DNA of 32,000 nucleotides from Candidatus Harpocratesius repetitus (GTDB taxonomy: Archaea > Asgardarchaeota > Lokiarchaeia > Sigyniarchaeales > Promethearchaeaceae): NCBI GenBank assembly GCA_021498095.1, contig JAIZWK010000001.1, positions 150,001-182,000 on the forward strand, written 5' to 3'. Positions 5,034 through 28,520 of the stretch are shown here, piece after piece. Each line of letters opens with the position of its first letter. Positions within the stretch are counted from its first letter, which is position 1. The position numbers and the translations under genes were made by a program. The notes below the pieces were generated by a model, which saw only the letters and a list, made by a program, of their open reading frames with translations, had not been told where the DNA came from and searched no databases.

Positions 5034-5096
5034 AAACTAACACCATAATAAATAAAATCCTATGTAATAACAACAATCCAATAAAGAGGAAAAATA

Positions 5097-6431: not shown

Positions 6432-6532
6432 GAGTTGCACAAGAATATAAAACTAAGTTAATAACTAAAATTATTTTTTTTTTGCGTAAAGAAATAAAAA
6501 GAAACAAAACAATGCTTTATGTGGTGAAAAAA

Positions 6533-6919
6533 ATGACAGACACAAAAAAGTCTATAACAAAGGAAGAATTACGAGAACTCATTGCGAAAAAAGCAATTGA
6601 ACTCGTAAATAAATACGAATTTAGCGAACGAAATGGAGTTTCTTCATCAAATTTAAGAAATTTATTAAATTTCAGTACATCATCAGCAGTTTCTCCAAAT
6701 CAGTTCATTCTTTTTGCAAAATATCAAGCAACACGTAAAGATGATCGGGTTTATTCTAAATTTACAAACGACTTTCTTAATACTGCTAAAGAATTAATTT
6801 CAAAGATTGGATGCAGATCAATTAAAGAAAAGATGGAAATATATAAGGAATTGCTTATCAGCATAGTTATGGGCGGAACTTTTCGGAAGAACGCACACGA
6901 AAAGATAGAAGCAATATAA
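6533..6919 (+). CDS. Small subunit Cas11 (Csm2-like), about 128 aa
   Basis: All-helical; SSSNLRNLL and FAKYQATR resemble III-D small subunits. Start moved to ATG 6533 because GTGGTG SD lies 6 nt upstream (ORF track starts at 6482). Confidence 0.65.
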   Translation: MTDTKKSITKEELRELIAKKAIELVNKYEFSERNGVSSSNLRNLLNFSTSSAVSPNQFILFAKYQATRKDDRVYSKFTNDFLNTAKELISKIGCRSIKEKMEIYKELLISIVMGGTFRKNAHEKIEAI

Positions 6920-6937
6920 ATAATTTGAGGGTGAAAA

Positions 6938-7714
6938 ATGACAGGAGAAATTTTAGGAAAATATATTATCGATTATTCCATCAAAACTTTAGAACCTTTA
7001 GCCATCGGAGGAACTCAACAGAACATTAGAATATCCGAGTCCGATCGCCCTGTTCTAAAGGATTCAAATGAAATTCCCTATATTCCCGGTAGTTCAATAA
7101 AAGGTCTTTTCCGAACATTCTTTGATCGAATGACAGAAGGATTTAAGCAGTTAACACAGAATCATCCAGCATTTTCTGGAGTTAAATTTAATTTAACTCA
7201 CAACAATCCAAATAAATCAGAGGAAGTTTGTGACTGTACACAATTAACAACACTAAAAGAAGATGAAATTTGCGATTTATGCCTACTTTTTGGAGCAAAA
7301 GGATACGGTTCACCTTTAATTTTTACTGATTTACTTTTAGATGAAGAAAAAGAGGATATCGAATTAGAACATAACACACATATCCGAATTGACAGAGGGA
7401 CGGATACAACAGTTAAAGGCGCGCTATTTTATGTAGAATCTGTTCCGAAAGATATAGAATTTAAAGGAAAAATAATCTTTGAAGTTCGAGATATAAATGA
7501 ACAGATTAAAAATCGAATTGATCTACTATTTAAAATACTTCTCCATCAAATTGAAAATAGAGAAATGCATGTAGGAGGAATGAAATCCAGAGGATACGGC
7601 TTATGTTCCTTTAAAATAAATGAAATCCATTATTATAGCCTTCAAGACCTAATTTTAGGTAATTTAGAAGAGAAGAAACCATTGATCATAGATCAATTTT
7701 TATCATGGTCTTAA
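6938..7714 (+). CDS. csm3: Cas7 (Csm3) backbone RAMP
   Basis: EPLAIGG, SDRPVLKD, PYIPGSSIKG, CDC..CDLC.LFG, HIRIDR, LFYVE, VGGMKSRGYG; SD GAGGGTGA. Confidence 0.9.
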   Translation: MTGEILGKYIIDYSIKTLEPLAIGGTQQNIRISESDRPVLKDSNEIPYIPGSSIKGLFRTFFDRMTEGFKQLTQNHPAFSGVKFNLTHNNPNKSEEVCDCTQLTTLKEDEICDLCLLFGAKGYGSPLIFTDLLLDEEKEDIELEHNTHIRIDRGTDTTVKGALFYVESVPKDIEFKGKIIFEVRDINEQIKNRIDLLFKILLHQIENREMHVGGMKSRGYGLCSFKINEIHYYSLQDLILGNLEEKKPLIIDQFLSWS

Positions 7715-7778
7715 AATATAATTAAATTCCAAAAAAAACAATTAGAATAAATAAGAAACATAAAGGAGATGCATTAAA

Positions 7779-8576
7779 ATAACATATAAATTTTCAAACT
7801 CATCAAAATTTTCAAAATACGATAGTTTTGCCAAAATAACTTTCGAAATCGAAACACAATCACCGCTATTAATTAAAAGCGGCGATAATGATTTACTTCC
7901 ATCAAGCAAAGATATGAGATTTGTACGAGATTCTTCAGGAAGTATTTTTATACCTGGATCCACCATGAAGGGTTTCTTTAAGGGAAATTTAGAACGTCTA
8001 AATGAATATTTTAAAGAAGATATTATTGAACACAGCTTTGGAACGCAGCAATTTGCAAGTAGTTTTCTGTTTAATGATGTTTATCCAACTGATAACGAAA
8101 CAATTTCATTTGAAACACGCTCTCAAATTGCGATTGATCGCCAAACTCAAGGCGTTCAAAAAGGTGCATTATTCTTTATTGAGTGCTTATCAAAAGGTGC
8201 AAAACTTGCTGGAAGTATTAATATCAGAAATCTCCGTTTATACCATTTGGGGCAACTTTATGCAATTATAATGATGGCAAATGATCAAAATATTAGTATT
8301 GGATTTAACAAAACGAGAGGATATGGAAAAATTAAGTTCTCCATCAAAGAACTAATTATTGATACACTTCCAAACCAATGGATCTTCAATTCAACTGATG
8401 GAAAGATAATAATTTCAGATGGTATAAAAACAATAGAATTTAAAGATGAAAATTTTAATACAAACAGTTTAAAAACGAAAAAATCTTTGTTGATGGATAA
8501 TTATCAATTTAAAGAAAAAGAAGCGTCGATGATAATGGAATCTTGTCTTGAAATTATTAAGAAAGGTGAAAACTAA
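7779..8576 (+). CDS. cas7: Cas7 (Csm3-like) RAMP; true start is upstream of the ORF-track start, probably non-AUG (ATA 7779)
   Basis: Frame open from 7764 and encodes AKITFEIETQSPLLIKSG (first RAMP strand) before the ATG at 7914; then FIPGSTMKG, QIAIDR, LFFIE, IGFNKTRGYG. SD AAGGAG at 7763-7768. Start position is inferred. Confidence 0.8.
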   Translation: MTYKFSNSSKFSKYDSFAKITFEIETQSPLLIKSGDNDLLPSSKDMRFVRDSSGSIFIPGSTMKGFFKGNLERLNEYFKEDIIEHSFGTQQFASSFLFNDVYPTDNETISFETRSQIAIDRQTQGVQKGALFFIECLSKGAKLAGSINIRNLRLYHLGQLYAIIMMANDQNISIGFNKTRGYGKIKFSIKELIIDTLPNQWIFNSTDGKIIISDGIKTIEFKDENFNTNSLKTKKSLLMDNYQFKEKEASMIMESCLEIIKKGEN

Positions 8577-8692
8577 AATTAGGTGGGAATATAAACGAAA
8601 TAAAGGCAGATATTGTAAAAATTAGATCCATGAAAAATGAATGAAAAAAAAAGATCAAAAAAATTAGAAAAAAGTGATGAGGACAAAAAAAA

Positions 8693-9346
8693 ATGGAAAA
8701 AAACACTAAACTCATTCGAACCCTGCTTTATATTTCAATAGATTCGGAAATAGATACATATATTAGTAAATTATTTTCCAAAATTCAAGAAATAATTGAT
8801 TTTAACAGCAACAATATTCAAAAAAATAATCATGATATTAATGAAATCGAAGAAAATAAGTATCGTATTTTAGCCCAAAAATACCATTTTATCGATTACA
8901 AGCAGATAGACTCGCTTTCAGATATAAAAAATAAAGATTTACTTAATTCTTATAAATTCAATATAATTCATCGTTACATTTCAATATCGATAATTAATAA
9001 AGAAACTAAATTAGATGTAAATATTTTCGCTACCAAAAGAATAATAACGCAAATTCTCGAAAGTTCAGTCTTAAAAGATATAAAAAACAATGATTTTATT
9101 CATGCAGACTATATTCCCATTAGTTCAATTGAAGAGAACAAAAAAGAAAAAACATACAATAATAATTATCAAAAAAATATTTTCATATATTCAACAGAAT
9201 CACAAAAAGATATATACAATTTAAAGATTGAACCATGGCTGAGATCAGAAAAGGAGTCTGATGAAAATAATAAAACTAAAATGGGAATTAATTTACCCGA
9301 ATTACCTGAAGTCTACTATAATATTCTTAATATCATATCTGTTTAG
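8693..9346 (+). CDS. Hypothetical protein in the Csx19 position of the III-D operon
   Basis: 217 aa between the tandem cas7 pair and the terminal cas7, the slot Csx19 occupies in III-D loci. No motif recognised; assignment is positional only. Confidence 0.4.
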   Translation: MEKNTKLIRTLLYISIDSEIDTYISKLFSKIQEIIDFNSNNIQKNNHDINEIEENKYRILAQKYHFIDYKQIDSLSDIKNKDLLNSYKFNIIHRYISISIINKETKLDVNIFATKRIITQILESSVLKDIKNNDFIHADYIPISSIEENKKEKTYNNNYQKNIFIYSTESQKDIYNLKIEPWLRSEKESDENNKTKMGINLPELPEVYYNILNIISV

Positions 9347-9370
9347 TGAATTAAAAAAAAAGTGATATGT

Positions 9371-10339
9371 ATGGCACAAAACTCAAATAAAGTTGCAATT
9401 GTTGATGAAAATGACTATTACATGTATTTAACTATTCCCAATTTGGAACAGGTTAAAAAAAAGCAAATGACAGTTAGATCAACTATAAAAAATATATGGA
9501 AAATCAAATATCAATTTAAAGTTTCACATGATTCAGCCCTACATGTTGGAAGTGGATTAGTTAAATACCCTATAGATTCCGATAACCCTAATCAAGAAAG
9601 TGCACTGGATTTTATGAGAACTCCAGATAGAAAGCCGTTTATTCCAGGATCAACATTAAAAGGATATACCCGCTCTAATTTTGAAATATTAGTTCCCGGT
9701 TGTTGTTTTATCACAAATAATAAATCCATGGATAAACCGCCCGCCTGTAAAGGCGATTCTATAAATATATGCTCCGCTTGTGATCTATTTGGCGTTAATA
9801 AAATTATGGGAAGGGTATCATTTTCTGATGCCTATTTAATGGGAGATTTTACTGAAAAAGTACTACAGATTCCAAGATTAATGGGTCCTTCAAAGAATAA
9901 GTATATTGCAGGGACTAAAAAACTTTATAAATATATTAAATTAGAAGAACTTTCACAAATATCCAAAAGAAGGGATGCAATTTGGGTTGTAAACCCCGGA
10001 GCGGAATTCCAAGGTGAAATTACGGTAACAAACAGCAATATTAATGAAATTAGACAATTAACTTTATCATTCGCATATATGTATAAAGATGCAACATTAA
10101 TTTTAGGACATGGTAAAAATATCGGTTTAGGTCACTGCCAAATTTCAAAATTAATTATCTTTCAGAAAAAGACACCATTCGAAAAATTAAAAAAGCACAC
10201 AGTGAAAATTCCTGAAATTTACAAAGATCCATTAATTGGAAAAAGTAAAACTGAGAAATTAATTCGCTGGGATATTCTTAAAAAAACATTTACTAAAAAT
10301 GGATTTCCATATCCAGGTCATGGAGATAGAAATTACTAA
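9371..10339 (+). CDS. cas7: Terminal Cas7-group RAMP of III-D (no large insertion)
   Basis: ALHVGSG, PFIPGSTLKGYTRS, C..C..CSACDLFG, GRVSFSDA, KKLY, LGHGKNIGLG. Start either GTG 9362 or ATG 9371 (GTGA SD-like motif 5 nt upstream). Confidence 0.8.
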   Translation: MAQNSNKVAIVDENDYYMYLTIPNLEQVKKKQMTVRSTIKNIWKIKYQFKVSHDSALHVGSGLVKYPIDSDNPNQESALDFMRTPDRKPFIPGSTLKGYTRSNFEILVPGCCFITNNKSMDKPPACKGDSINICSACDLFGVNKIMGRVSFSDAYLMGDFTEKVLQIPRLMGPSKNKYIAGTKKLYKYIKLEELSQISKRRDAIWVVNPGAEFQGEITVTNSNINEIRQLTLSFAYMYKDATLILGHGKNIGLGHCQISKLIIFQKKTPFEKLKKHTVKIPEIYKDPLIGKSKTEKLIRWDILKKTFTKNGFPYPGHGDRNY

Positions 10340-12638: not shown

Positions 12639-13325
12639 ATGATAATGAAAATGTCAAAAATAATGGATGATTGGTTCCCATTAGAGCCATTAAACAAAAA
12701 GAAAAATGGGGAATGGTTTTTCTCAGCAGATGAATTACGACAATATTTTTACTGCCCCAGAATTCCATTTTATAGAATTGTCCGTAAATTAAAAACAAAT
12801 CAAACAGCAATAATGCGTAGAGGTAAAGTATTTCATGAAAAAATTGTTCATAAACGCAAAAAACTTGAAAAATGGCTTAAAATTAATGAAAAAAACCAAG
12901 AAAAAAACATGTATTACTTCAATCTTTATTTAGAATCTCCATCATTGCACCTGCTTGCCTACTTAGACTTGGTTGAAAAGGAAAAAGATTCAAATGAAAT
13001 ATATCCAGTCGAATTAAAAACTGTGTCAGAACTCCCTAAAAATAATATATTTTTAGTAAAAGGTCATTTAATTCAACTCACTGTACATTCACTCCTTTTA
13101 GAAGAACATTTTAACACTTTTATCTCCAAAGCAAAATTAATCTATATATCTAATGAAAAAGTAAAATCTTTTTGGCAGGAAATCACAATTGACATGAAGA
13201 AGGTTGTTCTGAAAACGGTGAATAAGATGCATAAAAGTATAATTTCGGAAGATATTCCCGCTCCAATCAAAAATCTGAATAAGTGCAGAGTTTGTGATTT
13301 CAGACGCATTTGTAAAATAATTTAG
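12639..13325 (+). CDS. cas4: Cas4 RecB-like Fe-S nuclease
   Basis: QYFYCPR, GKVFHE, YLDLVE, PVELK, QLTVH, C-terminal CRVCDFRRIC (four-Cys cluster). Confidence 0.9.
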   Translation: MIMKMSKIMDDWFPLEPLNKKKNGEWFFSADELRQYFYCPRIPFYRIVRKLKTNQTAIMRRGKVFHEKIVHKRKKLEKWLKINEKNQEKNMYYFNLYLESPSLHLLAYLDLVEKEKDSNEIYPVELKTVSELPKNNIFLVKGHLIQLTVHSLLLEEHFNTFISKAKLIYISNEKVKSFWQEITIDMKKVVLKTVNKMHKSIISEDIPAPIKNLNKCRVCDFRRICKII

Positions 13326-13383: not shown

Positions 13384-16300
13384 ATTTCAATTAACTCTTT
13401 GATAGTTTCAAGCTTGCAGGTAGACACCTTTTTAAACGACAAATCAGTAACCATTAAATATTTCAATTATCTCTTTGATAGTTTCAAGCTTGCAGGAAAA
13501 AAAAAATTTATTTTAGGGGGGGGGTACTGCTTTATTTCAATTATCTCTTTGATAGTTTCAAGCTTGCAGGAGCATTTATGCTCAGATGGGACCTGGCACT
13601 ATCCACGCATTTCAATTATCTCTTTGATAGTTTCAAGCTTGCAGGATTATACTACAAAAGTTCTAAATCCCAAATTCTTTTTATTTCAATTATCTCTTTG
13701 ATAGTTTCAAGCTTGCAGGCTCAATCATCTGATCGATCTTCGATTAATTGAAGAGAAATTTCAATTATCTCTTTGATAGTTTCAAGCTTGCAGGGGGAGC
13801 ATGTGATTATCATGCTCAATTTGCTGAAGATGGATTTCAATTATCTCTTTGATAGTTTCAAGCTTGCAGGTTATCCTCAAAATAATTATACCATGCGAGT
13901 AAATCTTCATTTCAATTATCTCTTTGATAGTTTCAAGCTTGCAGGGGTCAACCCGATTTTGTTATTCGATCTCAATTATACTGATTTCAATTATCTCTTT
14001 GATAGTTTCAAGCTTGCAGGAAACTGAAGGGCTTTTTCCCTAATCTGACTGTAGGTTATTTCAATTATCTCTTTGATAGTTTCAAGCTTGCAGGGATCGG
14101 TTGTATCATCAGATCTACAGTGAAGTGCTTGAATTTCAATTATCTCTTTGATAGTTTCAAGCTTGCAGGACATGGCTTGTGCCAACTGGGAAAGTTGCTT
14201 CAACAATGAATTTCAATTATCTCTTTGATAGTTTCAAGCTTGCAGGGGTCAACCCGATTTTGTTATTCGATCTCAATTATACTGATTTCAATTATCTCTT
14301 TGATAGTTTCAAGCTTGCAGGCTCGTGGGATTAGCACTTGTGAAGCGTGGAAACTGCAGATTTCAATTATCTCTTTGATAGTTTCAAGCTTGCAGGCCCA
14401 AAGATGCGGCAAAAATCATTAGAAATTGCTTAAAATTTCAATTATCTCTTTGATAGTTTCAAGCTTGCAGGGATATCTTGTCCGTTTAAATCGATAGTAT
14501 CTTTTCTTAAATTTCAATTATCTCTTTGATAGTTTCAAGCTTGCAGGGATCAAATCAATGGATAACAAGAATGCGCTTTTACACATTTCAATTATCTCTT
14601 TGATAGTTTCAAGCTTGCAGGAGAATCGAGCAAAGATTATTATATTTCTTTGCAAGATTAATTTCAATTATCTCTTTGATAGTTTCAAGCTTGCAGGTGG
14701 AAAGAACAATGAAAAGATGTCAGTTGAAAAAGCATTTCAATTATCTCTTTGATAGTTTCAAGCTTGCAGGAAAAAAAAAGATTATTCTTCCCACCCTTCG
14801 GGGGTGAATTTCAATTATCTCTTTGATAGTTTCAAGCTTGCAGGTGCAATGAAGGTATTGAAGGTGTATAAAAACAATAAAATTTCAATTATCTCTTTGA
14901 TAGTTTCAAGCTTGCAGGTTGCCAAAAGCTATTCAATCTCTCAAATCTGAGTTGAGATTTCAATTATCTCTTTGATAGTTTCAAGCTTGCAGGGATAATG
15001 ATCATTTCATAAACTCAAGCGAAAAAAAAGAATTTCAATTATCTCTTTGATAGTTTCAAGCTTGCAGGGTTACCTTCTATAATAACTTTGGGTGGAAGAC
15101 AATAGAATTTCAATTATCTCTTTGATAGTTTCAAGCTTGCAGGGAGCTCCCTTCTCAATGCTGGTGGGCTGTATGTTCACATTTCAATTATCTCTTTGAT
15201 AGTTTCAAGCTTGCAGGCGTTCTTGACATAAATTTCTCTCACCTCAGCTTTTAACATTTCAATTATCTCTTTGATAGTTTCAAGCTTGCAGGCCACGTAT
15301 TTGAGGCAGAAGCAGAAATTCTTTCTGAGATATTTCAATTATCTCTTTGATAGTTTCAAGCTTGCAGGAATATGATTTGAAATTATATATCTTAAGATGT
15401 TCTACAATTTCAATTATCTCTTTGATAGTTTCAAGCTTGCAGGGATGAATATTCCTCATCTTCAGGATCGGTGATTACCATTTCAATTATCTCTTTGATA
15501 GTTTCAAGCTTGCAGGCAATTATGTTTTTTGAGCAACTTAAACTGATTTTAGCAATTTCAATTATCTCTTTGATAGTTTCAAGCTTGCAGGGTTAAGATT
15601 CCCATTAAAACTGATGAGGAGACTGGCGATTTCAATTATCTCTTTGATAGTTTCAAGCTTGCAGGAAATTATTCAAAAAAAATGGAGATCTTAATCCAAA
15701 CTAATTTCAATTATCTCTTTGATAGTTTCAAGCTTGCAGGAGAGAAATTGAGAATGCCTCTCTGACCTCTTCAGAGTTATTTCAATTATCTCTTTGATAG
15801 TTTCAAGCTTGCAGGAGAAATAAAGCAATTAGAGCAAGATTTTCAAAGAAAATATTTCAATTATCTCTTTGATAGTTTCAAGCTTGCAGGTCTCTTGATT
15901 TAACAAAATCTCTTCTAAACTCGAATTCAATTTCAATTATCTCTTTGATAGTTTCAAGCTTGCAGGTTCAAGTCAAACAATTGAATTGAGTAAATCCGTC
16001 GATTTATTTCAATTATCTCTTTGATAGTTTCAAGCTTGCAGGTGGGATAGCCACTACAACAGAGAAACTGAGAGAAATTGATTTCAATTATCTCTTTGAT
16101 AGTTTCAAGCTTGCAGGATCTACAGTTGGATGAATTGGAAAGACTTAAGCCAATGCATTTCAATTATCTCTTTGATAGTTTCAAGCTTGCAGGTTTTATT
16201 GCAGCAGTAGTTAAGAATGATGCGTGGGCTATTTCAATTATCTCTTTGATAGTTTCAAGCTTGCAGGCTTTTTCACGTAATAACTCATATATTGCATCTG

Positions 16301-19300
16301 CTGAGATTTCAATTATCTCTTTGATAGTTTCAAGCTTGCAGGCCAAACATTTTATTATATATTATGAAGTTATCAAAGGAATTTCAATTATCTCTTTGAT
16401 AGTTTCAAGCTTGCAGGGCATTTTACGGAATGCATCAAGATTGGTTTTGGACCGCATTTCAATTATCTCTTTGATAGTTTCAAGCTTGCAGGGTGGTTGT
16501 TCCTTATACGGGTAATAAAAGCGATTTTAAATTTCAATTATCTCTTTGATAGTTTCAAGCTTGCAGGGTTCATGAGAAACGCGTTCAGAAAATAAAGCAA
16601 TTTGAATTTCAATTATCTCTTTGATAGTTTCAAGCTTGCAGGATTAATGCTAAAGTCAAGCCAAAAGAATGGCATTACGAATTTCAATTATCTCTTTGAT
16701 AGTTTCAAGCTTGCAGGCTAACAACATTCAAGCTGATGCTTCTGAATCTTCCAACTATTTCAATTATCTCTTTGATAGTTTCAAGCTTGCAGGTAATTAT
16801 AATTGTAATATGGGTACTATTTATATTGATTTATTTCAATTATCTCTTTGATAGTTTCAAGCTTGCAGGTGAACTGAAAGAAGAGTTCAAAGATATCGTG
16901 CAATTTTTATTTCAATTATCTCTTTGATAGTTTCAAGCTTGCAGGGAAGAATTTCCTTCAAAATCTCATGGGAGATTCAAGACATTTCAATTATCTCTTT
17001 GATAGTTTCAAGCTTGCAGGACGGAAAAGAGCAGCATTTTTGATGAGAAGAGGGTAAAATTTCAATTATCTCTTTGATAGTTTCAAGCTTGCAGGCTGTA
17101 TAACCAGGAAAAAAGCGCCGGAAGAAAATTCAAATTTCAATTATCTCTTTGATAGTTTCAAGCTTGCAGGAAAATTTCTGTTAGACAGGATGTCTATGCA
17201 CAATTATGATTTCAATTATCTCTTTGATAGTTTCAAGCTTGCAGGCCTTTGATATGGGTGCTGAAATCTATACTGCACAAAATATTTCAATTATCTCTTT
17301 GATAGTTTCAAGCTTGCAGGTTCTTTAATCAAATATTTTAATCAATCTTTCAATTTCAATTTCAATTATCTCTTTGATAGTTTCAAGCTTGCAGGCCAAG
17401 CGGATTTCGTGGGATCTCCGAGATCTGCATAAATTTCAATTATCTCTTTGATAGTTTCAAGCTTGCAGGAGGTTCAACGAAAGAAGATCCTTTATATCCA
17501 CATGGAGATTTCAATTATCTCTTTGATAGTTTCAAGCTTGCAGGGAATTTATTAGTTTGGGTGGTGAGTAGAGACAAAAGAATTTCAATTATCTCTTTGA
17601 TAGTTTCAAGCTTGCAGGAAGGATGCAGTATTAAGGCAATACTGCTCCATCCGGTTATTTCAATTATCTCTTTGATAGTTTCAAGCTTGCAGGAAATTAT
17701 TTAAAGAAATGTATGAATTAACATCAATTAAATTTCAATTATCTCTTTGATAGTTTCAAGCTTGCAGGAGTGAGAGTTAATACTCTCATGTTTGCTGGGA
17801 GTCTATAATTTCAATTATCTCTTTGATAGTTTCAAGCTTGCAGGGGTGCATTTACCCATTCGATCTTCTTTTATAAATGAGTATTTCAATTATCTCTTTG
17901 ATAGTTTCAAGCTTGCAGGTTTGAAGTTTTGCTGCTGAAGGGTTTTACTATACCGGAAATTTCAATTATCTCTTTGATAGTTTCAAGCTTGCAGGTTTTT
18001 TTTCGTGATTTTTTCTTGACTTGGATTACAGGAATTTCAATTATCTCTTTGATAGTTTCAAGCTTGCAGGAGCAGACAATTCAATTCCAGAAGAGGGTAA
18101 AAAGTTTCATTTCAATTATCTCTTTGATAGTTTCAAGCTTGCAGGTGAGTGTGAATGAGTATAACCGTCCAGCCCAAATCTCCTATTTCAATTATCTCTT
18201 TGATAGTTTCAAGCTTGCAGGAATTTCTTTGGGACAAAGACATTCAACACATTCGAATTCATTTCAATTATCTCTTTGATAGTTTCAAGCTTGCAGGAGT
18301 GAGATTTGGAATGAAATTTTATGCTCATGTCTCAGATTTCAATTATCTCTTTGATAGTTTCAAGCTTGCAGGGTATTTTAATCATTTCTTCCCATGTTTT
18401 ATCATTAAAATTTCAATTATCTCTTTGATAGTTTCAAGCTTGCAGGTCCTACATATGGATAATCTTGACACAGTTCGAGAGAATAATTTCAATTATCTCT
18501 TTGATAGTTTCAAGCTTGCAGGTTCCTACTTCAGTTTGGTTGCATTCCCCAAAATCTTCAATTTCAATTATCTCTTTGATAGTTTCAAGCTTGCAGGCCA
18601 TTACCCCTATCATAAAATTTCTAAGAGTAGGCTCAATTTCAATTATCTCTTTGATAGTTTCAAGCTTGCAGGTTATATATTTTAAAATATAATGTAAAGT
18701 CTTATCTGTAAATTTCAATTATCTCTTTGATAGTTTCAAGCTTGCAGGAAAAGATCTCTTTTTTCTTTATCTTCTGGAAGATTAATATTTCAATTATCTC
18801 TTTGATAGTTTCAAGCTTGCAGGAATAATTACAACTTTTCAAAAATGTGAATTCTACATGTATTTCAATTATCTCTTTGATAGTTTCAAGCTTGCAGGAA
18901 TTAAGGAAGCATTACCGTCCAAAGAGACAATATTGGATTTCAATTATCTCTTTGATAGTTTCAAGCTTGCAGGTTTGAATGCAGAAGAAGAAAAGCAATA
19001 TGAAAAAATCAGATTTCAATTATCTCTTTGATAGTTTCAAGCTTGCAGGTTTTTTCTTTATCCATTCTAACCATCTCACTAAATTATAATTTCAATTATC
19101 TCTTTGATAGTTTCAAGCTTGCAGGTATGATGCAGTAACTCATATTTCAGAAATAACTTTTGCATTTCAATTATCTCTTTGATAGTTTCAAGCTTGCAGG
19201 CTATTATCTTGATATAAATTCGTTATATCCTTACGTAAATTTCAATTATCTCTTTGATAGTTTCAAGCTTGCAGGATTCACGAGCAAAGGCTCAAGAAAA

Positions 19301-22300
19301 TAAAACAATTTGAATTTCAATTATCTCTTTGATAGTTTCAAGCTTGCAGGCCGTGGGGATGAAAGAGATATGCAAAATATCAATCGAGATTTCAATTATC
19401 TCTTTGATAGTTTCAAGCTTGCAGGGTTAAAATTATACGTGAGTATGATGAAAATAATATTGAATTTCAATTATCTCTTTGATAGTTTCAAGCTTGCAGG
19501 AAGAACTGATTAAGATTATGAAGGAGCATGGTTTTACATTTCAATTATCTCTTTGATAGTTTCAAGCTTGCAGGATAATAGTTGATGAACGGGAAAGACC
19601 TTCCGGATTAATATTTCAATTATCTCTTTGATAGTTTCAAGCTTGCAGGTAATATTTTTAAAACGGGTGGAAAAGGAGGAATAAACAATTTCAATTATCT
19701 CTTTGATAGTTTCAAGCTTGCAGGCTAAAGCGGTAATCCTCATACCGAAAACTGCATTTGTTATTTCAATTATCTCTTTGATAGTTTCAAGCTTGCAGGG
19801 CCGGTAAGACGACTGAGAGCACCAAATAAAGATACAGATTTCAATTATCTCTTTGATAGTTTCAAGCTTGCAGGTAGGTATTTGCGGATCTTGTAGTCAA
19901 CACTGTAATTGTATTTCAATTATCTCTTTGATAGTTTCAAGCTTGCAGGGATCCTGTTTATCATCAACAACAATATTTAACAGACATATTTCAATTATCT
20001 CTTTGATAGTTTCAAGCTTGCAGGGTGGCACAATATAGACAACAGAGAAAAGAAGGACTTGCTATTTCAATTATCTCTTTGATAGTTTCAAGCTTGCAGG
20101 TTTCTCTGTGGATAATCTATTCGACGCCTTAAAAATGAATTTCAATTATCTCTTTGATAGTTTCAAGCTTGCAGGAACATATCAATCCACTGTTGGCAAA
20201 TGTCGATAAAGATATTTCAATTATCTCTTTGATAGTTTCAAGCTTGCAGGTTCAAATCTTTTTGGATCTCGGTAAACATTTTAATCGAATTTCAATTATC
20301 TCTTTGATAGTTTCAAGCTTGCAGGAGAGTGGGAAGAAAAAGAACAAGAACGCTTGTTCTTATTTCAATTATCTCTTTGATAGTTTCAAGCTTGCAGGTT
20401 TATTCTGCCCAAGTGCCATAATCAAACTTTGAAGGATTTCAATTATCTCTTTGATAGTTTCAAGCTTGCAGGGCTTTCATCTGGTCGTTTGAGACAGAAG
20501 TTCCTTCAAAATTTCAATTATCTCTTTGATAGTTTCAAGCTTGCAGGAGATTTTTCGATATTTTCATCTATTTTTTTTGTTTTTATTTCAATTATCTCTT
20601 TGATAGTTTCAAGCTTGCAGGGTTGTTCTGTATGCCCTGTGACAGTTGTATTTGCTGATATTTCAATTATCTCTTTGATAGTTTCAAGCTTGCAGGTAAC
20701 GGCGATTGTATGTATTTCTTTAAGATTATATTCCATTTCAATTATCTCTTTGATAGTTTCAAGCTTGCAGGAATCCATGCTATCCCAAATAATGAACCAC
20801 ATAAAAGCAATTTCAATTATCTCTTTGATAGTTTCAAGCTTGCAGGATGAAATTCTTGCTCAGAATTGAAAAAAGCGGATTAACATTTCAATTATCTCTT
20901 TGATAGTTTCAAGCTTGCAGGTTTTTTTATAGTGTATTAGTTGTAATAACAAAATTTAATTTCAATTATCTCTTTGATAGTTTCAAGCTTGCAGGACAAT
21001 CGAAATAACATATACGCCGAAAGATTATTTGATATTTCAATTATCTCTTTGATAGTTTCAAGCTTGCAGGCTGCCAATAGATACCACTTCGGTATAATAC
21101 AAATAATTATTTCAATTATCTCTTTGATAGTTTCAAGCTTGCAGGCTTTTTCCCAAGAAAAAAGTGAAAGGAAAACACTATGTATTTCAATTATCTCTTT
21201 GATAGTTTCAAGCTTGCAGGTTGAACGACATTGGTTTGTACAACCAATATCGTAGTATAATTTCAATTATCTCTTTGATAGTTTCAAGCTTGCAGGCTCC
21301 AAGCACCAGCTGGAGATGACAAGTGGATATTTATTTCAATTATCTCTTTGATAGTTTCAAGCTTGCAGGTCAAAGGGTATTATGGTTTCAATAAAAAGTG
21401 AAGAACTAATTTCAATTATCTCTTTGATAGTTTCAAGCTTGCAGGAGCAATGGAATAATAGAATGGTATTGGAAATTTGGGCAATTTCAATTATCTCTTT
21501 GATAGTTTCAAGCTTGCAGGTTTTAATCTTGCTAATATATTTCTGCTCATAGAAATTGCATTTCAATTATCTCTTTGATAGTTTCAAGCTTGCAGGCGGG
21601 GCGGGGGTGTAGAGATGAATCCACCGAATTTTAATTTCAATTATCTCTTTGATAGTTTCAAGCTTGCAGGGGCTCCTTCTTCAAAGAGTCTCATCTTTGA
21701 AGAAATATATTTCAATTATCTCTTTGATAGTTTCAAGCTTGCAGGCATTGGGGTTTGGAGGGGGTCCGAGTTAGATCGAAATAATTTCAATTATCTCTTT
21801 GATAGTTTCAAGCTTGCAGGTAACTTCCATGATATTTTAAACGAGATCCAAGAGGAGAAATTTCAATTATCTCTTTGATAGTTTCAAGCTTGCAGGGCCC
21901 TTGTAAGAGGCAGCATAGCAACCAGATTGTTCTAATTTCAATTATCTCTTTGATAGTTTCAAGCTTGCAGGACGGGCAGGAAGAATATTTAAAACTTTCG
22001 GACGCGGAATTTCAATTATCTCTTTGATAGTTTCAAGCTTGCAGGTAACAAATCAATTTCTCTTCTAAATTCTGCAAGTTGAGATTTCAATTATCTCTTT
22101 GATAGTTTCAAGCTTGCAGGCAGAAAATATGAGAAAATCATGATTGAATCACCAGGTGATTTCAATTATCTCTTTGATAGTTTCAAGCTTGCAGGCTCAA
22201 GCGGGTATTTGAATGAATCATGTCTGTTATTGGATTTCAATTATCTCTTTGATAGTTTCAAGCTTGCAGGAAATTTTTGGCTTGAATAGAGCCTTCTTCT

Positions 22301-24745
22301 TAAAGAAATTTCAATTATCTCTTTGATAGTTTCAAGCTTGCAGGCTTTTGATTGCACAGATATGTGGAGCGTAGAGATTGAATTTCAATTATCTCTTTGA
22401 TAGTTTCAAGCTTGCAGGGGTATAAATGCAAATTCACTTTTGATTGCACAGATATGATTTCAATTATCTCTTTGATAGTTTCAAGCTTGCAGGTATAAAT
22501 GCTATCGAAATGATATTAAACGCTTCTTTTCATTTCAATTATCTCTTTGATAGTTTCAAGCTTGCAGGGCAAGATAATGCAAGATCTTTGGATAATCTGG
22601 ATATTATTTCAATTATCTCTTTGATAGTTTCAAGCTTGCAGGTAGAAAGATATCGATTAGTAGAATTAATTAATGTAAATATTTCAATTATCTCTTTGAT
22701 AGTTTCAAGCTTGCAGGGAGAGATAATACTCTCTCAAGCGCTTCTGCATATTTGTAATTTCAATTATCTCTTTGATAGTTTCAAGCTTGCAGGTTAGTGT
22801 TCAGATAACTGAACCGGAGTGAAAAAAAATAATTTCAATTATCTCTTTGATAGTTTCAAGCTTGCAGGAAGGAAAGGATAGATTTGGATATCTATCCTGG
22901 GATTTATTTCAATTATCTCTTTGATAGTTTCAAGCTTGCAGGAGATAATTAATTTCCTTATATGTAATCTCAAATACAAAATTTCAATTATCTCTTTGAT
23001 AGTTTCAAGCTTGCAGGTCACTTTTTTTTCACTCCTGTTTTTTATCACTCCCGGCATTTCAATTATCTCTTTGATAGTTTCAAGCTTGCAGGTCCGATAT
23101 TGACAGAGGTATTCTCAGGGAACTGTATAATTTCAATTATCTCTTTGATAGTTTCAAGCTTGCAGGTAATATTATATAATCACTATGTCAACTAATAACG
23201 GTCGTATTTCAATTATCTCTTTGATAGTTTCAAGCTTGCAGGGTGGTATGGATGTGCTGGTGTGGATTTGGATGATGAAATTTCAATTATCTCTTTGATA
23301 GTTTCAAGCTTGCAGGTCCCACCATTTTAAAGAGAGCGTTCTTAAACACTCTCTTATTTCAATTATCTCTTTGATAGTTTCAAGCTTGCAGGTTGGAAAC
23401 GTATTTATGCACAGATTATAAAAGGGCTGAGCATTTCAATTATCTCTTTGATAGTTTCAAGCTTGCAGGGGTGTAAATTCACATGCGGAGATTGATTCTC
23501 ATATTGCATTTCAATTATCTCTTTGATAGTTTCAAGCTTGCAGGTAATGATACTAATGCTAACGATTTAGATCTAAGTGGAAATTTCAATTATCTCTTTG
23601 ATAGTTTCAAGCTTGCAGGGACATGAACTCAGAATTGGATAAAATTCTTGAGAGGATATTTCAATTATCTCTTTGATAGTTTCAAGCTTGCAGGAAGGAT
23701 GCTAAACCAGTGTAATATACTCGCGATTGGATTTCAATTATCTCTTTGATAGTTTCAAGCTTGCAGGGTATTTGTATCAGGGGAAGGATTATAAGCCTCA
23801 ATTAATTTCAATTATCTCTTTGATAGTTTCAAGCTTGCAGGTAATTTAGAAGTGTTAAAAACACTTCCTGATGAAAGTGATTTCAATTATCTCTTTGATA
23901 GTTTCAAGCTTGCAGGATTTAATCCTAAACCACCCGAAAAAATACCGGATGGAAATTTCAATTATCTCTTTGATAGTTTCAAGCTTGCAGGTGATTTGAA
24001 CGGGCGTTTATATTTGATGAGAACCTTCAAATTTCAATTATCTCTTTGATAGTTTCAAGCTTGCAGGTGAAGTATTAGAGGTGATCTCAGAGGAATTTGA
24101 TTATCAATTTCAATTATCTCTTTGATAGTTTCAAGCTTGCAGGAAAGGATGTTGGAGTTACCACGAACTGGGAAGTTATCAATTTCAATTATCTCTTTGA
24201 TAGTTTCAAGCTTGCAGGGATGATCTTGTTAAAGAAGGTTATATCGAGCATTACTTATTTCAATTATCTCTTTGATAGTTTCAAGCTTGCAGGGGAAAAT
24301 TTCAATATTATGATGGATCTTGGCACGATATATTTCAATTATCTCTTTGATAGTTTCAAGCTTGCAGGTGTAAAATTGTAATAATTCTAATGTTTTTTGT
24401 ATATGTATTTCAATTATCTCTTTGATAGTTTCAAGCTTGCAGGAAAATTCCCACAATTGCGGACATGATTCAAGATGCAGTATTTCAATTATCTCTTTGA
24501 TAGTTTCAAGCTTGCAGGCATAGATTTTATGCTCAAAGGTGAGTGGGCAGAAAGATATTTCAATTATCTCTTTGATAGTTTCAAGCTTGCAGGAAGAAAT
24601 GTATCTAAAATATCCCCGAAATTGGTTATTTTATTTCAATTATCTCTTTGATAGTTTCAAGCTTGCAGGTCTGATACCAGGTCAGCATTTTAGCAGATCC
24701 CATACATGATTTCAATTATCTCTTTGATAGTTTCAAGCTTGCAGG
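13384..24745 (-). CRISPR. CRISPR array: 152 repeats of 37 nt, 151 spacers of 36-40 nt (mostly 38)
   Basis: Plus-strand repeat ATTTCAATTATCTCTTTGATAGTTTCAAGCTTGCAGG; transcribed form CCTGCAAGCTTGAAACTATCAAAGAGATAATTGAAAT, with a 4-bp TATC/GATA hairpin followed by exactly 8 nt ATTGAAAT (Cas6-type 5' handle). The only variant repeat noticed is the leftmost (trailer end). Counted by hand; mean period 75.0 nt. Confidence 0.99.
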
Positions 24746-24900
24746 TGCTTCTAAAATGCCCTATACTTCAAAATCAGGCACTAAGAACAAAAACACCTAC
24801 ACTAATTAATATTGAATTTCCTTAAAAATTTATGCATTGGAAATTACTCCAATTAAATATGCACCAAATTCACCGAGAATTCTTCAATTACTTATTATTT
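24746..24900 (-). promoter_or_regulatory. CRISPR leader
   Basis: AT-rich non-coding stretch next to the non-degenerate end of the array, on the cas1/cas2 side; TATA-like TTTTTAAG on the minus strand near 24821-24828. Extent approximate. Confidence 0.7.
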
Positions 24901-25667
24901 ATGAAAATTCATGGAGGTGGCATGAGATTTATGTTTGAATTTAAATAAAATGAATTTCGTTCAACCTTATTTCACCCATGTGCTTTTAAAAATGAACGGA
25001 AATCGAATTCCTTGGAAAACAGGAAAAAGTGTGAATCCGCCAGTAGATGTTGCTTGATCTTAAGATTTTCAGAAATAATCATTGATAACGCAGTTTGAAT
25101 AAAATTATTGTATGTTTATGATTAACTGAGTAAATATTGGAAAAATTCTAATACAAATTCCAACATTAAAAATTTTGATGCACGGAAAATGAAATATGAA
25201 TAAGAAATTTTTTAAGTGCAAAAGCAATCATAGTGTCAACCAATAATATCTCCTGTAGAGTAAAGCGTAGTTGACACAGAACAAGGGTAATGTTTTTATT
25301 TTGGGTTTACGATAAATATTGATAAGTTTAGAAGAAATCGGTCGAAAATTTTATGCAAAATAAAATCAATTTCAAGAGATAGACATAGGACAGGAACAAG
25401 CGAGATTAAACCTGACCAAACCTGACAAGCAAAAATAAAGGAGAAATTCAAAAGTAAAGTTTGGAATGGCAGAAAAATAGTGAAATACAATAATATGAAC
25501 CGTTTTAATTGTGTTAATTCATAGTCTATAGTTAGACAATTGCATGATTACATTTAGTAGCGTTATTGTAATACACTAAAAAGTGAAGGGTGTAATTGTG
25601 ATATTTTTTTGGGGCATATTTTTTTTGAGTAATGTGAAAAAGATTACATAGTTTTGGCGCAAAAATA

Positions 25668-28520
25668 ATGGATTTTAAACAATTATTCAAGATTCTTTCA
25701 GCATCTGGTGTTGCTTACAAAAACGGTTGGGAAACATATTCAAAAAATCAATCAAAGGAAATACCTGTCAATCCTACGAATGAAACTTTTAATGAACAGT
25801 TTAAAAAATCTATAGATGGATCATTCAGCATTTTGTCTGATAAGCAGTTTGATTCTAATATTGATGCTGTTTGCAGCGATGAGGGGCATATTGATAATTT
25901 ATGGGATAATTACTATGGTATAATCATAGCGGTAGAATATAAGATTTTTTTTGGTGGGATTTTTGTTCCACATTTAGTAGTTCAAGGATTTAATGGTGAA
26001 ATAACATGGATTCCATTGGTAGATTATGTAATTTTGCGGGTATCTCGTGAAAAGTATTGTTTAGATTGTATCAGGTTAATTTCAAGAAATAAGAAAGAAA
26101 AAGAAGAATCCAAAATCACAAAAGAATCTGTAAACACGAGAGAATCTAAAATCGCAAAAGAATCTGCAAACACGAGAGAATCTAAAATCGCAAAAGAATC
26201 TGTAAACACGAGAGAATCTAAAATCGCAAAAGAATCCAAAATCCCAAGAAAGCATATAAGTTTTAGAGATAACTTTACACAAGATGCGGGTCAATTATAC
26301 CGGATAAATTTACTAAATCACGAAATACAACAGCAATATAGAGCATCGGAGCATTTATGTGATAATTGTTCGACACTAAATAAATCAGCACTTTTTCATT
26401 ATTTTGAGCATCGTTATAATTATTCTTGTTTCCTTTATCCTTTTAGGTGTCATTTATGCGAGGGATGTCGGCGTTGTTGGAGTTGTGAGTATATAGAGAA
26501 GTGTTATGAAGATAAAGGGCTTGGAATATTATTAGATTCTGAAGATATTTTAATTATTAAGGATTTTTTTTCGATTAATCGAGATAAAAAAAGAAAAAAC
26601 AAAGAAGAAAGTAAAAAGCGTGGAAAAGAAATAAATAAAGATAGAGAAGAAAGAATAAAACATAGAGAAAAAAGAAATAAAGAAGAAGAAAGTAAAAAGC
26701 GTGGAAAAGAAATAAATAAAGATAGAGAAGAAAGAATAAAACATAGAGAAAAAAGAAATAAAGAAGAAGAAAGTAAAAAGCGTGGAAGAGAAATAAATAA
26801 AGATAGAGAAGAAAGAATAAAGCATGGAGAAAAAATAAAAAATAAAAATGAAAGTGAAAAAAGCGAGGGGCTCAATAGAGGGCTTTTTTGGTTTTTCCCT
26901 CATAATAAGACACCAAAAATAATCATTGGGAGTTGGGATGAATGTTTATGGGAAGGATTGAAAATTGGGGGGCGTTATTTACTTTATTGTGAACCTGAGG
27001 AAATGATAAACTTTGATGCATTATATAATGGAATTTTACGAGATATTGACAACAGCATTAAAGATTGGAATGATTGGAATGATTGGGATGATTGGAATGA
27101 CTTAAATGATTCAATATTTTCCAGCGAATATAATGGATCAGATAAGGAAAAATCCGACATTGTTGCGCCCCAATATATTAATAAATTTGAAGATAATGAG
27201 ATAAGGCAAAAAGATTACAAGATAATAAGCAAATTTGAGAAATATATTCATTCATGGTTGTTTGAACGAATAAATGAGAATTCTGCAATTTTTAAAGATA
27301 TTTTAGAAGAAATTTTGATTGACACAAAAGACAGCACTAATATCACAAACACCACAAACACTATAAACAGCAAAAACACTGCAAACAACAAAAACACTAT
27401 AAACAGCAAAAACACTGCAAACAACAAAAACACTATAAACAGCAAAAACACTGCAAACAACAAAAACACTATAAACAGCAAAAACACTGCAAACAACAAA
27501 AACACTGCAAACAGCAAAAGCATTCAAATAAGAAAAGAAGATATAACTTCGAAAAATTTGGAAGAACAAAAAGAATGTGAAAAAACTTTGGAAAATCAAA
27601 AAGAGAAGCACATGCATAAACAAAAAAAGAATCAGATGAAGAAGCAAAAAGAGATTCAGATTAATAAAAGTAAGCATGATTCATATAATTCCCAAAATTA
27701 TCAGTCAAAGGTGATTTTGCATGTATCTCATCCAAATACAAATTGGAACATATCGATATATGAGATTTCGAGCGAAAAAGTGGAGAATCGTCAATTTTTA
27801 GGAAATATTGATATTTTTTCTCCAGAAAGGATTCATCTATATGAGAATATTGTTCATAAAAAATGGAGTGCCTTTTCAAGTCGAGATTACAGAGCAGAGC
27901 AATTTTCTGAAATATTATCTGATGATTTTACTTTAAAAAACAGGAGATGTGAAAATGCTGAAGAAACACAATATGCTGAAGAAACACAATATCCTGAAGA
28001 AATACAATATGCTGAAGAAACACAATATCCTGAAGAAACACAATATCCTGAAGAAACACAATATGCTGAAGAAACACAATATGCTGAAGAAACACAATAT
28101 CCTGAAGAAATACAATATGCTGAAGAAACACAATATCCTGAAGAAACACAATATCCTGAAGAAACACAATATCCTGAAGAAACACAATATGCTGAAGAAA
28201 CACAATATCCTGAAAAGATACAAGATAGAGAAGATATGCAAAACTCCTTTTCTGTTGGATTTTTTGGTTTTTATAGTCATGATATGATTAATCTGGAATT
28301 TTATGTTGAAAATTATGCTGGATCTCGACTTTTGGTGAGATTTAGGACTAATACAGTCGATGAGATGGAAAGAAAAAACATCATTGATAATGTAAATTTA
28401 GAAAACAGAAAAAGCATCAATAAAAAGGATTTTTTCTTAAAAAACGAAAAAAATAGCCCATTACGATGGCTAAACTTGAATGATCTAATCGGGCATAAGA
28501 TTTGGTTGGATGTGGTTTAG
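25668..28520 (+). CDS. Cys-rich hypothetical protein (950 aa) interrupted by five tandem-repeat blocks; core weakly resembles DUF2797-type Zn-finger proteins
   Basis: Long ORF with YCLDC, LCDNC and C..RCHLCEGCRRCWSCEYIEKC; ends LNLNDLIGHKIWLDVV. The CDS itself is near certain; the family resemblance is from memory and unverified. Confidence 0.6.
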   Translation: MDFKQLFKILSASGVAYKNGWETYSKNQSKEIPVNPTNETFNEQFKKSIDGSFSILSDKQFDSNIDAVCSDEGHIDNLWDNYYGIIIAVEYKIFFGGIFVPHLVVQGFNGEITWIPLVDYVILRVSREKYCLDCIRLISRNKKEKEESKITKESVNTRESKIAKESANTRESKIAKESVNTRESKIAKESKIPRKHISFRDNFTQDAGQLYRINLLNHEIQQQYRASEHLCDNCSTLNKSALFHYFEHRYNYSCFLYPFRCHLCEGCRRCWSCEYIEKCYEDKGLGILLDSEDILIIKDFFSINRDKKRKNKEESKKRGKEINKDREERIKHREKRNKEEESKKRGKEINKDREERIKHREKRNKEEESKKRGREINKDREERIKHGEKIKNKNESEKSEGLNRGLFWFFPHNKTPKIIIGSWDECLWEGLKIGGRYLLYCEPEEMINFDALYNGILRDIDNSIKDWNDWNDWDDWNDLNDSIFSSEYNGSDKEKSDIVAPQYINKFEDNEIRQKDYKIISKFEKYIHSWLFERINENSAIFKDILEEILIDTKDSTNITNTTNTINSKNTANNKNTINSKNTANNKNTINSKNTANNKNTINSKNTANNKNTANSKSIQIRKEDITSKNLEEQKECEKTLENQKEKHMHKQKKNQMKKQKEIQINKSKHDSYNSQNYQSKVILHVSHPNTNWNISIYEISSEKVENRQFLGNIDIFSPERIHLYENIVHKKWSAFSSRDYRAEQFSEILSDDFTLKNRRCENAEETQYAEETQYPEEIQYAEETQYPEETQYPEETQYAEETQYAEETQYPEEIQYAEETQYPEETQYPEETQYPEETQYAEETQYPEKIQDREDMQNSFSVGFFGFYSHDMINLEFYVENYAGSRLLVRFRTNTVDEMERKNIIDNVNLENRKSINKKDFFLKNEKNSPLRWLNLNDLIGHKIWLDVV
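26106..26243 (+). repeat. 36-nt in-frame tandem repeat (ESKIAKESVNTR x3 plus partials)
   Basis: Read directly. Confidence 0.9.
26601..26834 (+). repeat. 81-nt in-frame tandem repeat (27 aa, about 2.8 copies)
   Basis: AGT(Ser) anchors at 26610, 26691 and 26772; encodes EESKKRGKEINKDREERIKHREKRNKE. Confidence 0.92.
27063..27110 (+). repeat. 9-nt in-frame repeat (DWN/DWD x4-5)
   Basis: gattggaat gattggaat gattgggat gattggaat gacttaaat gat. Confidence 0.85.
27357..27518 (+). repeat. 36-nt in-frame repeat (NTINSKNTANNK x4 plus half unit)
   Basis: aacactataaacagcaaaaacactgcaaacaacaaa at 27357, 27393, 27429 and 27465. Confidence 0.92.
27957..28226 (+). repeat. 18-nt in-frame repeat ([A/P]EE[T/I]QY x14 plus 1 degenerate)
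   Basis: Read directly from DNA and ORF translation. Confidence 0.95.

Follow-up and report, generated by a model that had tools for sequence, protein, structure and literature searches.

The CRISPR array and its cas gene neighbourhood

The window, meaning the whole 32,000-nt stretch of the Candidatus Harpocratesius repetitus genome analysed here, contains a CRISPR array (A4; 13384..24745, minus strand) that, on regular-expression and TRF parsing, comprises 152 copies of a 37-nt repeat separated by 151 spacers, each 36-40 nt long. All but one of the spacers are unique (150 of 151), and 151 of the 152 repeats are identical, the lone variant lying at the 13384 end. An earlier note on this DNA had delimited the array as 13421-24708, which matches exactly the span from the first to the last spacer. 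A4 is one of four co-oriented arrays (A1-A4, with 204 unique spacers in all) with the same 37-nt repeat, the large arrays differing by 0-1 nt. When the high-coordinate flanks of these arrays were aligned, A4 and the second large array (A3, with 47 unique spacers) proved to share long conserved blocks, defining a leader of approximately 290 nt (24746..25040, minus strand). A4 runs from its leader end (24745) down to its trailer end (13384), and on the minus strand the 3′ terminus of the repeat is ATTGAAAT, the usual 8-nt crRNA handle motif. The production of crRNA from the minus strand, proposed in the earlier note on the basis of repeat geometry, is borne out by the variant repeat at 13384, by the leader side of A3 and A4 and by the repeat terminus.

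On the plus strand, the window begins with a type III-D-like effector module. Its cas10 gene (1114..4377) encodes 1087 aa with a Cas10 palm2 domain, an HD domain at residue 183 (Pfam HD, E = 3.6e-6) and a GGDD cyclase motif at residue 776. It is followed by a block of RAMP subunits (4377..10339, plus strand) recognised through NCBIfam and Pfam matches, comprising three Csx7-like proteins (4377-5033, 6938-7714 and 7914-8576), a Csx10-like protein (5097-6431) and a TIGR03986-like protein (9362-10339), together with two plus-strand ORFs assigned to no family (6482-6919 and 8693-9346). A first cas4 gene (12639..13325, plus strand; Pfam Cas_Cas4, E = 1e-9) precedes the array, and a second lies just beyond the window (genome positions 182349-183044; TIGR00372, E = 3.5e-23), in agreement with the Cas4-type adaptation module that had been postulated. 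Between the leader and cas1 is a repeat-rich ORF of 950 aa (25668..28520, plus strand) that could be assigned to no family, its only Pfam match being weak and sub-threshold. The cas1 gene (28755..30278, plus strand; 507 aa; Pfam Cas_Cas1, E = 3.7e-71) carries a K/E-rich insertion and no reverse transcriptase (RT) fusion; it is the single cas1 detected in the closed genome by a whole-genome PF01867 search, and cas2 and cas4 adjoin it. When genome contigs were searched with Cas1, no extended match exceeded 38% identity, and short segments reached up to 50%. The cas2 gene (30414..32000, plus strand) extends past the end of the window and encodes 585 aa in full, of which residues 1-87 form the Cas2 core. 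The earlier note had raised the possibility that the Cas2 extension ends in an RT or RNA-binding domain; Pfam and NCBIfam searches with the full-length protein identified no domain in this long tail. The 950-aa ORF, the giant Cas2 and a beta-CASP nuclease are the unusual extra members of the adaptation operon.

These genes belong to a 70-kb cluster that holds type I-B, III-B and III-D-like modules, CARF proteins and the two cas4 genes. The III-B module (cmr1-cmr6) lies upstream, and the I-B module contains cas3, cas5b and two Cst2/DevR cas7 genes; no Cas6 was recognised. Type III effectors are in place both within the window (III-D-like Cas10) and upstream of it (III-B Cmr). GGDD is retained in both Cas10 proteins, and its HD and GGDD motifs make the III-D-like Cas10 intact-looking at the sequence level. 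As the earlier note had it, there is no RT in or near the cas cluster: RVT_1 matches occur in the genome only at 701 kb, at 786 kb (weak, below the family cut-off) and at 1131 kb, placing the RT genes 0.5-1 Mb from the cluster. Cas1 consists of the Cas1 domain alone, and neither Cas1 nor Cas2 bears an extra enzymatic domain. From this gene content, we predict that A4 crRNAs can serve one I-B and two type III complexes.

Coding sense of the spacers

Direct mapping of the spacers yielded no protospacers in the collections searched. Comparison of the whole of A4 with GenBank phages (in a near search mode and, as two halves, in a distant search mode) produced only chance-level matches of 31-37 nt (E >= 0.01) to Klebsiella and Methanothermobacter phages, and PLSDB plasmids contained no protospacer. 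A search of all 210 spacers against the organism's own genome with arrays masked gave no match above 27 nt, and BLAST of A4 against 14 family-level and 161 class-level Lokiarchaeia genomes gave marginal partial matches only. Recurrent Lokiarchaeia matches were traced to a T-rich, low-complexity spacer (20548-20584), and the two best (28/29 and 29/30 nt) were discarded as being within chance for AT-rich sequence and ambiguous in gene context. Five merged degenerate patterns covering 15 spacers detected no protospacer in IMG/VR, nor did one of the five in JGI metagenomes, and the back-translated PolB peptide of spacer 19201-19238 matched none of the viral, metagenome and genome contigs.

The earlier note had claimed that the spacers are strongly biased towards crRNAs antisense to mRNA, citing open plus-strand frames in most of them. 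Such frames do not discriminate between strands: an open frame is present on the plus strand in 145 of the 150 unique spacers and on the minus strand in 140, with a mean of 1.596 open frames per spacer on each strand. Open-frame counts were rejected as a test of sense, since stop codons are purine-rich and the counts are confounded, as was the RNY score, which equals its own reverse complement.

Coding sense was instead scored with a codon-usage model trained on host genes, so that the sense fraction reflects codon statistics and not mapped protospacers. Tested on host 38-mers, the classifier is right in 80% of cases, and on resident mobile elements in 78-83%. It called 87 spacers plus-sense and 64 minus-sense (57.6% positive), with a mean log-likelihood ratio (LLR) of 0.50 ± 0.22. 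Shuffled spacers gave an LLR of −0.1, so the signal lies in codon structure rather than in composition. The plus-sense fraction was estimated at 0.62 by a mixture model with host codon usage, at 0.65 (0.52-0.775) by a kernel-density fit and at 0.66-0.68 when codon usage was learned anew from the spacers by expectation-maximization (EM), for an overall range of 0.62-0.68 with a 95% confidence interval of about 0.52-0.78; in simulation, the mixture estimator recovered known fractions with a standard deviation of approximately 0.05. Coding-potential scoring of all the spacers hence upheld the direction of the claimed bias but not its strength. Likewise, the two spacers singled out as examples of an opposite minority (15891-15929 and 20548-20584) do score as minus-sense, but the opposite share, at 64 of 151, is no small minority. 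On balance, we favour the reading that the array leans about 2:1 at most towards crRNAs able to pair with target mRNA, a modest rather than a strong bias.

The most serious competitor, which we nonetheless regard as unlikely, is that there is no meaningful coding-sense bias, the codon signal being sampling noise and the purine skew deriving from a few heavily sampled elements or from the context of the protospacer-adjacent motif (PAM). The sign test on the 87 and 64 calls falls short of significance (binomial p = 0.07), the A3 array yields a plus-sense fraction of 0.46-0.56, that is, no codon-model bias, and spacers devoid of any open frame number 5 on the plus and 10 on the minus strand in A4 but 4 and 1, respectively, in A3; moreover, these data had already been inspected for the earlier note when the tests were selected. 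Against this, the t-test on LLR values is significant (p = 0.014), as is that on plus-strand purine content (0.530, with 89 spacers above and 52 below 0.5; p = 7e-4), and within spacers purine content correlates with LLR (r = 0.32, p = 7e-5). The purine skew of A3 has the same sign as that of A4. Acquisition in bursts, or primed from one strand of a few elements, was rejected, as neither autocorrelation (lag-1 r = 0.03) nor runs (runs test z = −0.29) point to single-element bursts.

Conversely, selection by type III complexes could have generated a strong bias, of at least 85% antisense crRNAs, that a host-trained model underestimates because the targets use other codons. We consider this improbable, even though several observations favour it. 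The plus-strand purine excess (0.030 ± 0.008) and G-C skew (0.035 ± 0.009) of A4 match or surpass those of host genes all oriented in sense, and they exceed the 0.005-0.020 predicted on host-like DNA by a 65% fraction or by the PAM alone; a score based on G at codon position 1 implies a plus-sense fraction of 0.81-0.86; and absolute LLR values are lower in spacers than in host genes (coding signal of 1.75 versus 2.59), suggesting that the classifier is weaker on the targets. The PolB-motif spacer (19201-19238), the sole one with independent evidence of plus sense, scores as minus-sense, illustrating that single calls are noisy, and the dedicated type III-A arrays of Streptococcus thermophilus are almost fully biased (PMC8860593). 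However, 11 spacers score below −3 and 25 above +3, when only 1.2% of true sense host windows fall below −3; the EM estimate holds at 0.66-0.68 even with codon usage learned from the spacers; host genes with an equally weak coding signal are still called correctly in 76% of cases, and resident mobile elements in 78-83%; and the G-based score is confounded with the very skew it is meant to explain. Provided that targets have host-like codon usage, a sense fraction of 0.9 fits worse by 9.2 log-likelihood units and is rejected; were target codons to differ greatly, the true bias could be higher than this host-trained model indicates. Two further sources of skew were discarded: position-specific end effects, as the G-C skew does not vary with position in the spacer, and transcription-linked deamination within the array, which predicts the opposite G-C sign and is at odds with the unmutated repeats.

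Candidate sources of the strand tilt

Overlapping spacers provide some insight into how orientation may be set. The protospacers of two adjacent spacers (22345-22381 and 22419-22456, within 22345..22456) lie on the same strand and have 20 nt in common, and the single flank available from this pair gives the only PAM that can be inferred, CCA, located 5′ of the protospacer on the crRNA-identical strand. This motif resembles the CCN PAM of Pyrococcus furiosus. In addition, spacers 16568-16605 and 19276-19313 sample two diverged variants in identical register. CCA, TTC or CTT sites in host genes fall on the antisense strand in 57-61% of cases; CCN and TTC would yield 57-58% antisense crRNAs on these genes, and AAG 56% sense. 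In simulations of PAM-anchored sampling of host DNA, the mean LLR was 0.41-0.51, with 55.6-55.8% positive calls. In simulation, then, a pyrimidine-rich PAM by itself is enough to generate the bias seen by the codon model. Type III selection is thus a plausible contributor that the bias does not demand: retention through type III would be sufficient for it without being required.

The explanation that we consider probable as a whole is that A4 is an ordinary shared array with a modest tilt, whose minus-strand crRNAs would be usable by a DNA-targeting I-B complex and by transcript-sensing III-B and III-D-like complexes. The one Cas1-Cas2 module of the genome, together with Cas4, would capture spacers from DNA, and Cas4 would orient each of them by the PAM, not by transcription. 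Some 60-68% of the spacers would then give rise to crRNAs antisense to the target gene. Two ordinary sources, not separable here, may account for this tilt: a pyrimidine-rich PAM would be commoner on the antisense strand of purine-rich genes, contributing 56-61% by itself, and spacers of use to the type III complexes as well may be preferentially retained. The earlier note had type III selection or RNA-linked acquisition dominating the array; with a bias of about 2:1 at most, nothing dominates, and nothing points to RNA-linked acquisition.

We know of no description of orientation-specific uptake from DNA without an RT. A transcription- or RNA-linked route that fixes orientation at acquisition, possibly independent of RT and acting through the 950-aa ORF, the giant Cas2 and the beta-CASP nuclease, is very improbable: these unusual genes, the transcription-dependent location of spacer sampling in S. 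thermophilus type III-A (PMC13575424) and the lack of a significant dependence of bias on spacer age speak for it, but the cluster and its vicinity are devoid of RT, Cas1 and Cas2 carry only their own domains, the published effect of transcription concerns location and not orientation, the pair of cas4 genes implies that the PAM directs orientation, as it does in P. furiosus (PMC7293040), the shared register and the 22345-22456 overlap both fit PAM anchoring, and an opposite minority of 35-40% is unlike RNA-derived uptake. Equally far-fetched is the combined proposal that the true bias is much stronger than the codon model indicates, as the purine and G-C skews hint, and that it is imposed at acquisition by an RT-independent, transcription-coupled mechanism involving the accessory proteins.

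The size of the A4 bias is ordinary, matching what the literature gives for arrays that DNA-targeting and RNA-sensing systems have in common, and as one more instance, obtained in an Asgard archaeon through statistical inference only, it matters little in itself. Of broader consequence is that open frames in 38-nt spacers cannot reveal coding sense, and first-pass readings based on them are not to be trusted. PAM base composition alone yields strand biases of published size and direction, so the RNA preference or avoidance attributed to CRISPR subtypes should be normalised by per-strand availability of PAM sites before selection is read into it, a need that we infer from one genome.

Comparison with known systems

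In RT-Cas1 systems, such as those of Marinomonas mediterranea (III-B; PMC5576922) and Vibrio vulnificus (III-D; PMC6821258), a type III effector adjoins the adaptation module, as it does here. In those systems RT is fused to Cas1, and spacers can be obtained from RNA, whereas the Cas1 described here has no RT. Type III-A of S. thermophilus resembles A4 in acquiring spacers from DNA without RT (PMC8860593, PMC13575424). It inserts them in both orientations, at random upon integration, and the bias of natural arrays arises by selection (PMC8860593). That system has a dedicated array with near-complete bias and no PAM, whereas A4 would be a PAM-oriented shared array with a bias of about 2:1.

Pyrococcus furiosus has seven shared arrays, I-A, I-B and III-B effectors and one Cas1-Cas2 module with Cas4-1 and Cas4-2, a pair that sets PAM and orientation (PMC7293040). 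The Lokiarchaeia-type Asgard host studied here likewise has several effector types predicted to use crRNAs from repeat-sharing arrays and one adaptation module with two Cas4 proteins. It differs in its effector set (I-B, III-B and III-D-like), in the long low-complexity insertions of Cas1 and Cas2 and in having no recognised Cas6.

Shared I-B/III arrays are common (category three, with 71 I-B/III genomes), and coding-strand targeting averages 65% for type III arrays and 55% for I-B, the latter figure referring to type I spacers of genomes in which type III is present too (Vink et al. 2021, Genome Biol, PMC8482600). Unlike in that study, where bias was derived from mapped protospacers, the bias of A4 comes from codon statistics, and the Asgard host has two type III modules, one III-B and one III-D-like. 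As in the multi-effector arrays of Vink et al., one repeat type and a single adaptation module accompany both I-B and type III effectors in this genome, and the estimated coding-strand bias equals the type III average given there and lies near the I-B figure.

The CRISPR array and its cas surroundings

The main CRISPR array of the window (A4, 13384-24745) lies in a closed genome of 4.36 Mb and 31% G+C, of which the window spans bases 150001-182000. Its 152 repeats are each 37 nt long and, apart from one, identical. They separate 151 spacers measuring 36-40 nt, of which 150 are unique; the duplicated spacer is present as two identical copies (13946-13983 and 14247-14284), four units apart and close to the trailer end. 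The same repeat, in the same orientation, recurs upstream in the genome in three other arrays of 1, 6 and 52 spacers. The second large array (A3), upstream of the window, contains an internal tandem duplication (genome 135315-136171) in which units 22-26 are repeated as units 27-31 (five consecutive spacers), and one of these five recurs a third time in unit 33.

A4 sits in a cluster of roughly 70 kb, whose elements follow one another along the genome as a one-spacer mini-array; a Csx20/CARF gene; a 6-spacer array; type III-B genes cmr1 to cmr6; a 52-spacer array; an aCPSF1-like beta-CASP gene with a CARF gene; a minus-strand type I-B module (cas3, cas5b, cas7, a 742-aa ORF and a second cas7); within the window, a type III-D-like module (cas10 with HD and GGDD, a csx10-like gene and several csx7-like RAMPs); cas4 and then A4; and, finally, a 950-aa ORF without family assignment, cas1, a 585-aa cas2, a second cas4 and a beta-CASP/MBL nuclease. 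The 742-aa ORF, to which no family was assigned, occupies the expected cas8 position. No family hit was obtained for the ORFs at 8693-9346, 10424-10894 and 11131-12534, which lie between the RAMP genes and cas4, and Cas6 (PF01881) has no match anywhere in the closed genome.

The genome has no cas1 other than the one beside A4. An earlier note had correctly described a Cas4-type adaptation module with no visible reverse transcriptase: the genome matches this family at 701 kb, at 1131 kb and, weakly and below the family cut-off, at 786 kb, but nowhere else, and no reverse transcriptase resides in the Cas2 extension, where the note had suggested looking, since Cas1 and full-length Cas2 carry no domain other than their own. 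The match at genome 1130942-1131613 contains two in-frame TAA stops and is probably a decayed copy, with the intact copy at genome 701060-701743.

The sole variant repeat of A4 is at its 13384 end, the high-coordinate flanks of both large arrays have in common a conserved leader some 290 nt long, and the repeat read on the minus strand has ATTGAAAT as its 3' end, the motif usual for the 8-nt 5' handle of class 1 crRNAs processed by Cas6. These three features bear out the proposal that crRNA derives from the minus strand. A crRNA is therefore antisense to mRNA when its spacer is plus-sense, meaning that the sense strand of the target gene corresponds to the spacer's plus strand.

Strand asymmetry of the spacers

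A codon-usage model was trained on long host ORFs and used to obtain, for each spacer, the log-likelihood ratio (LLR) of plus- versus minus-sense, summed over frames. Its accuracy was 80% on held-out host 38-mers (mean LLR 2.2) and 78-83% on resident mobile elements of the same genome. In A4, 87 calls were positive and 64 negative (57.6% positive), with a mean LLR of 0.50 ± 0.22 (t-test p = 0.014; sign test p = 0.07). Shuffled spacers gave -0.1, indicating that the signal is due to codon structure and not to base content. A mixture with fixed host codon usage placed the plus-sense fraction at 0.62 for A4, 0.55 for A3 and 0.60 for all spacers; the corresponding estimates were 0.66-0.68, 0.46-0.54 and 0.63-0.65 with codon usage re-estimated by EM, and 0.65 (95% CI 0.52-0.775), 0.56 (0.355-0.76) and 0.62 (0.515-0.72) in a kernel-density fit, which rejects a fraction of 0.9 for A4 by 9.2 log-likelihood units. 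Simulations with known fractions showed the estimator to be nearly unbiased (SD ~0.05). Confident calls in A4 number 25 above +3 and 11 below -3; among host windows known to be sense, no more than 1.2% score below -3. The coding signal of the spacers is about two-thirds of the host's (1.75 vs 2.59), so the classifier is somewhat weaker on them; host genes of equally weak coding signal are still called correctly in 76% of cases. The original observation is confirmed in part, while the claim that the bias is strong is not supported: the asymmetry is real but modest, at most about 2:1 by the best available measure. It shows neither autocorrelation (lag-1 r = 0.03) nor an excess of runs (z = -0.29) in A4 spacer order, and no significant trend with spacer age (Spearman p = 0.25; mean LLR 1.10 in the oldest third, 0.28 and 0.27 in the others).

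The cue behind that claim, open and protein-like plus-strand frames, has no discriminating power at spacer length. An open frame is present in 145 of 150 spacers on the plus strand and 140 of 150 on the minus strand, the mean number per spacer is 1.596 on either, and such counts are confounded because stop codons are purine-rich.

On the plus strand A4 spacers are 53.0% purine (89 above half, 52 below; p = 7e-4), with G-C and A-T skews of 0.035 ± 0.009 and 0.026 ± 0.013. They are as purine-skewed as fully sense-oriented host genes (0.526), and more so than expected from a 65% fraction, whether on host-like DNA or on that of resident elements. Either the target coding strands are purine-richer than the host's, or the true fraction lies above the codon-model value. 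Purine content correlates with LLR within spacers (r = 0.32), so both measures partly track the same thing. The G-C skew, uniform along spacer length, is larger than in fully sense-oriented host genes (0.021) and in resident mobile elements (-0.007 to 0.030), and none of the models tried explains it in A4 or in A3 (genome 133706-137630).

Protospacer mapping found no targets in GenBank phages, PLSDB, the host genome or Lokiarchaeia genomes, nor, for a few spacers, in IMG/VR and metagenomes; the mobilome recorded by A4 is absent from the collections searched. The T-rich, low-complexity spacer 20548-20584 gives spurious 80-90% matches across many Lokiarchaeia genomes and should be masked whenever spacers are matched to targets. 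Spacers 16568-16605 and 19276-19313 represent two diverged variants of one protospacer in the same register (29/38 nt identical). Codon position 2 (plus frame 0) is untouched by their nine differences, and an Arg codon changes from CGC to AGG, a pattern that fits both re-acquisition, anchored by the PAM, from related elements and coding on the plus strand; against the latter, the host codon model calls both minus-sense (-3.6 and -0.7).

PAM composition and type III retention as possible sources of the bias

Two ordinary mechanisms, PAM composition and type III retention, would each suffice for the bias. With Cas4, spacer orientation is set by the PAM (PMC7293040), and the single flank from which one can be inferred (overlapping spacers 22345-22456) gives CCA. 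In host genes, 57-61% of pyrimidine-rich motif sites are on the antisense strand. Simulated PAM-anchored sampling of host DNA (CCA, TTC, CTT) produced mean LLRs of 0.41-0.51 with 55.6-55.8% positive, matching the A4 observation, and a purine excess of only 0.005-0.020. PAM composition may be the source of the codon-model bias.

The interpretation in the earlier note is supported in part. Type III use of A4 spacers is plausible: both Cas10 proteins look intact, CARF effectors are present, and experiments show that spacer integration is unoriented relative to transcription, the bias being produced by selection (PMC8860593). The dominance that the earlier note ascribed to type III selection does not hold, and a side effect of base composition under PAM selection accounts for the bias equally well. 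Nothing supports RNA-linked acquisition.

The pattern has been described before in arrays of this kind: type III arrays target the coding strand in 65% of cases, against 55% for type I spacers from genomes that also carry type III, in a survey where shared I-B/III arrays were the commonest arrangement (PMC8482600). Across host genes genome-wide, CCN and TTC lead to 57-58% antisense crRNAs, and AAG to 56% sense. PAM base composition, which is not discussed in Vink et al. 2021 (PMC8482600), by itself yields, on these genes, coding- or template-strand biases that agree in size and sign with those published for CRISPR subtypes.
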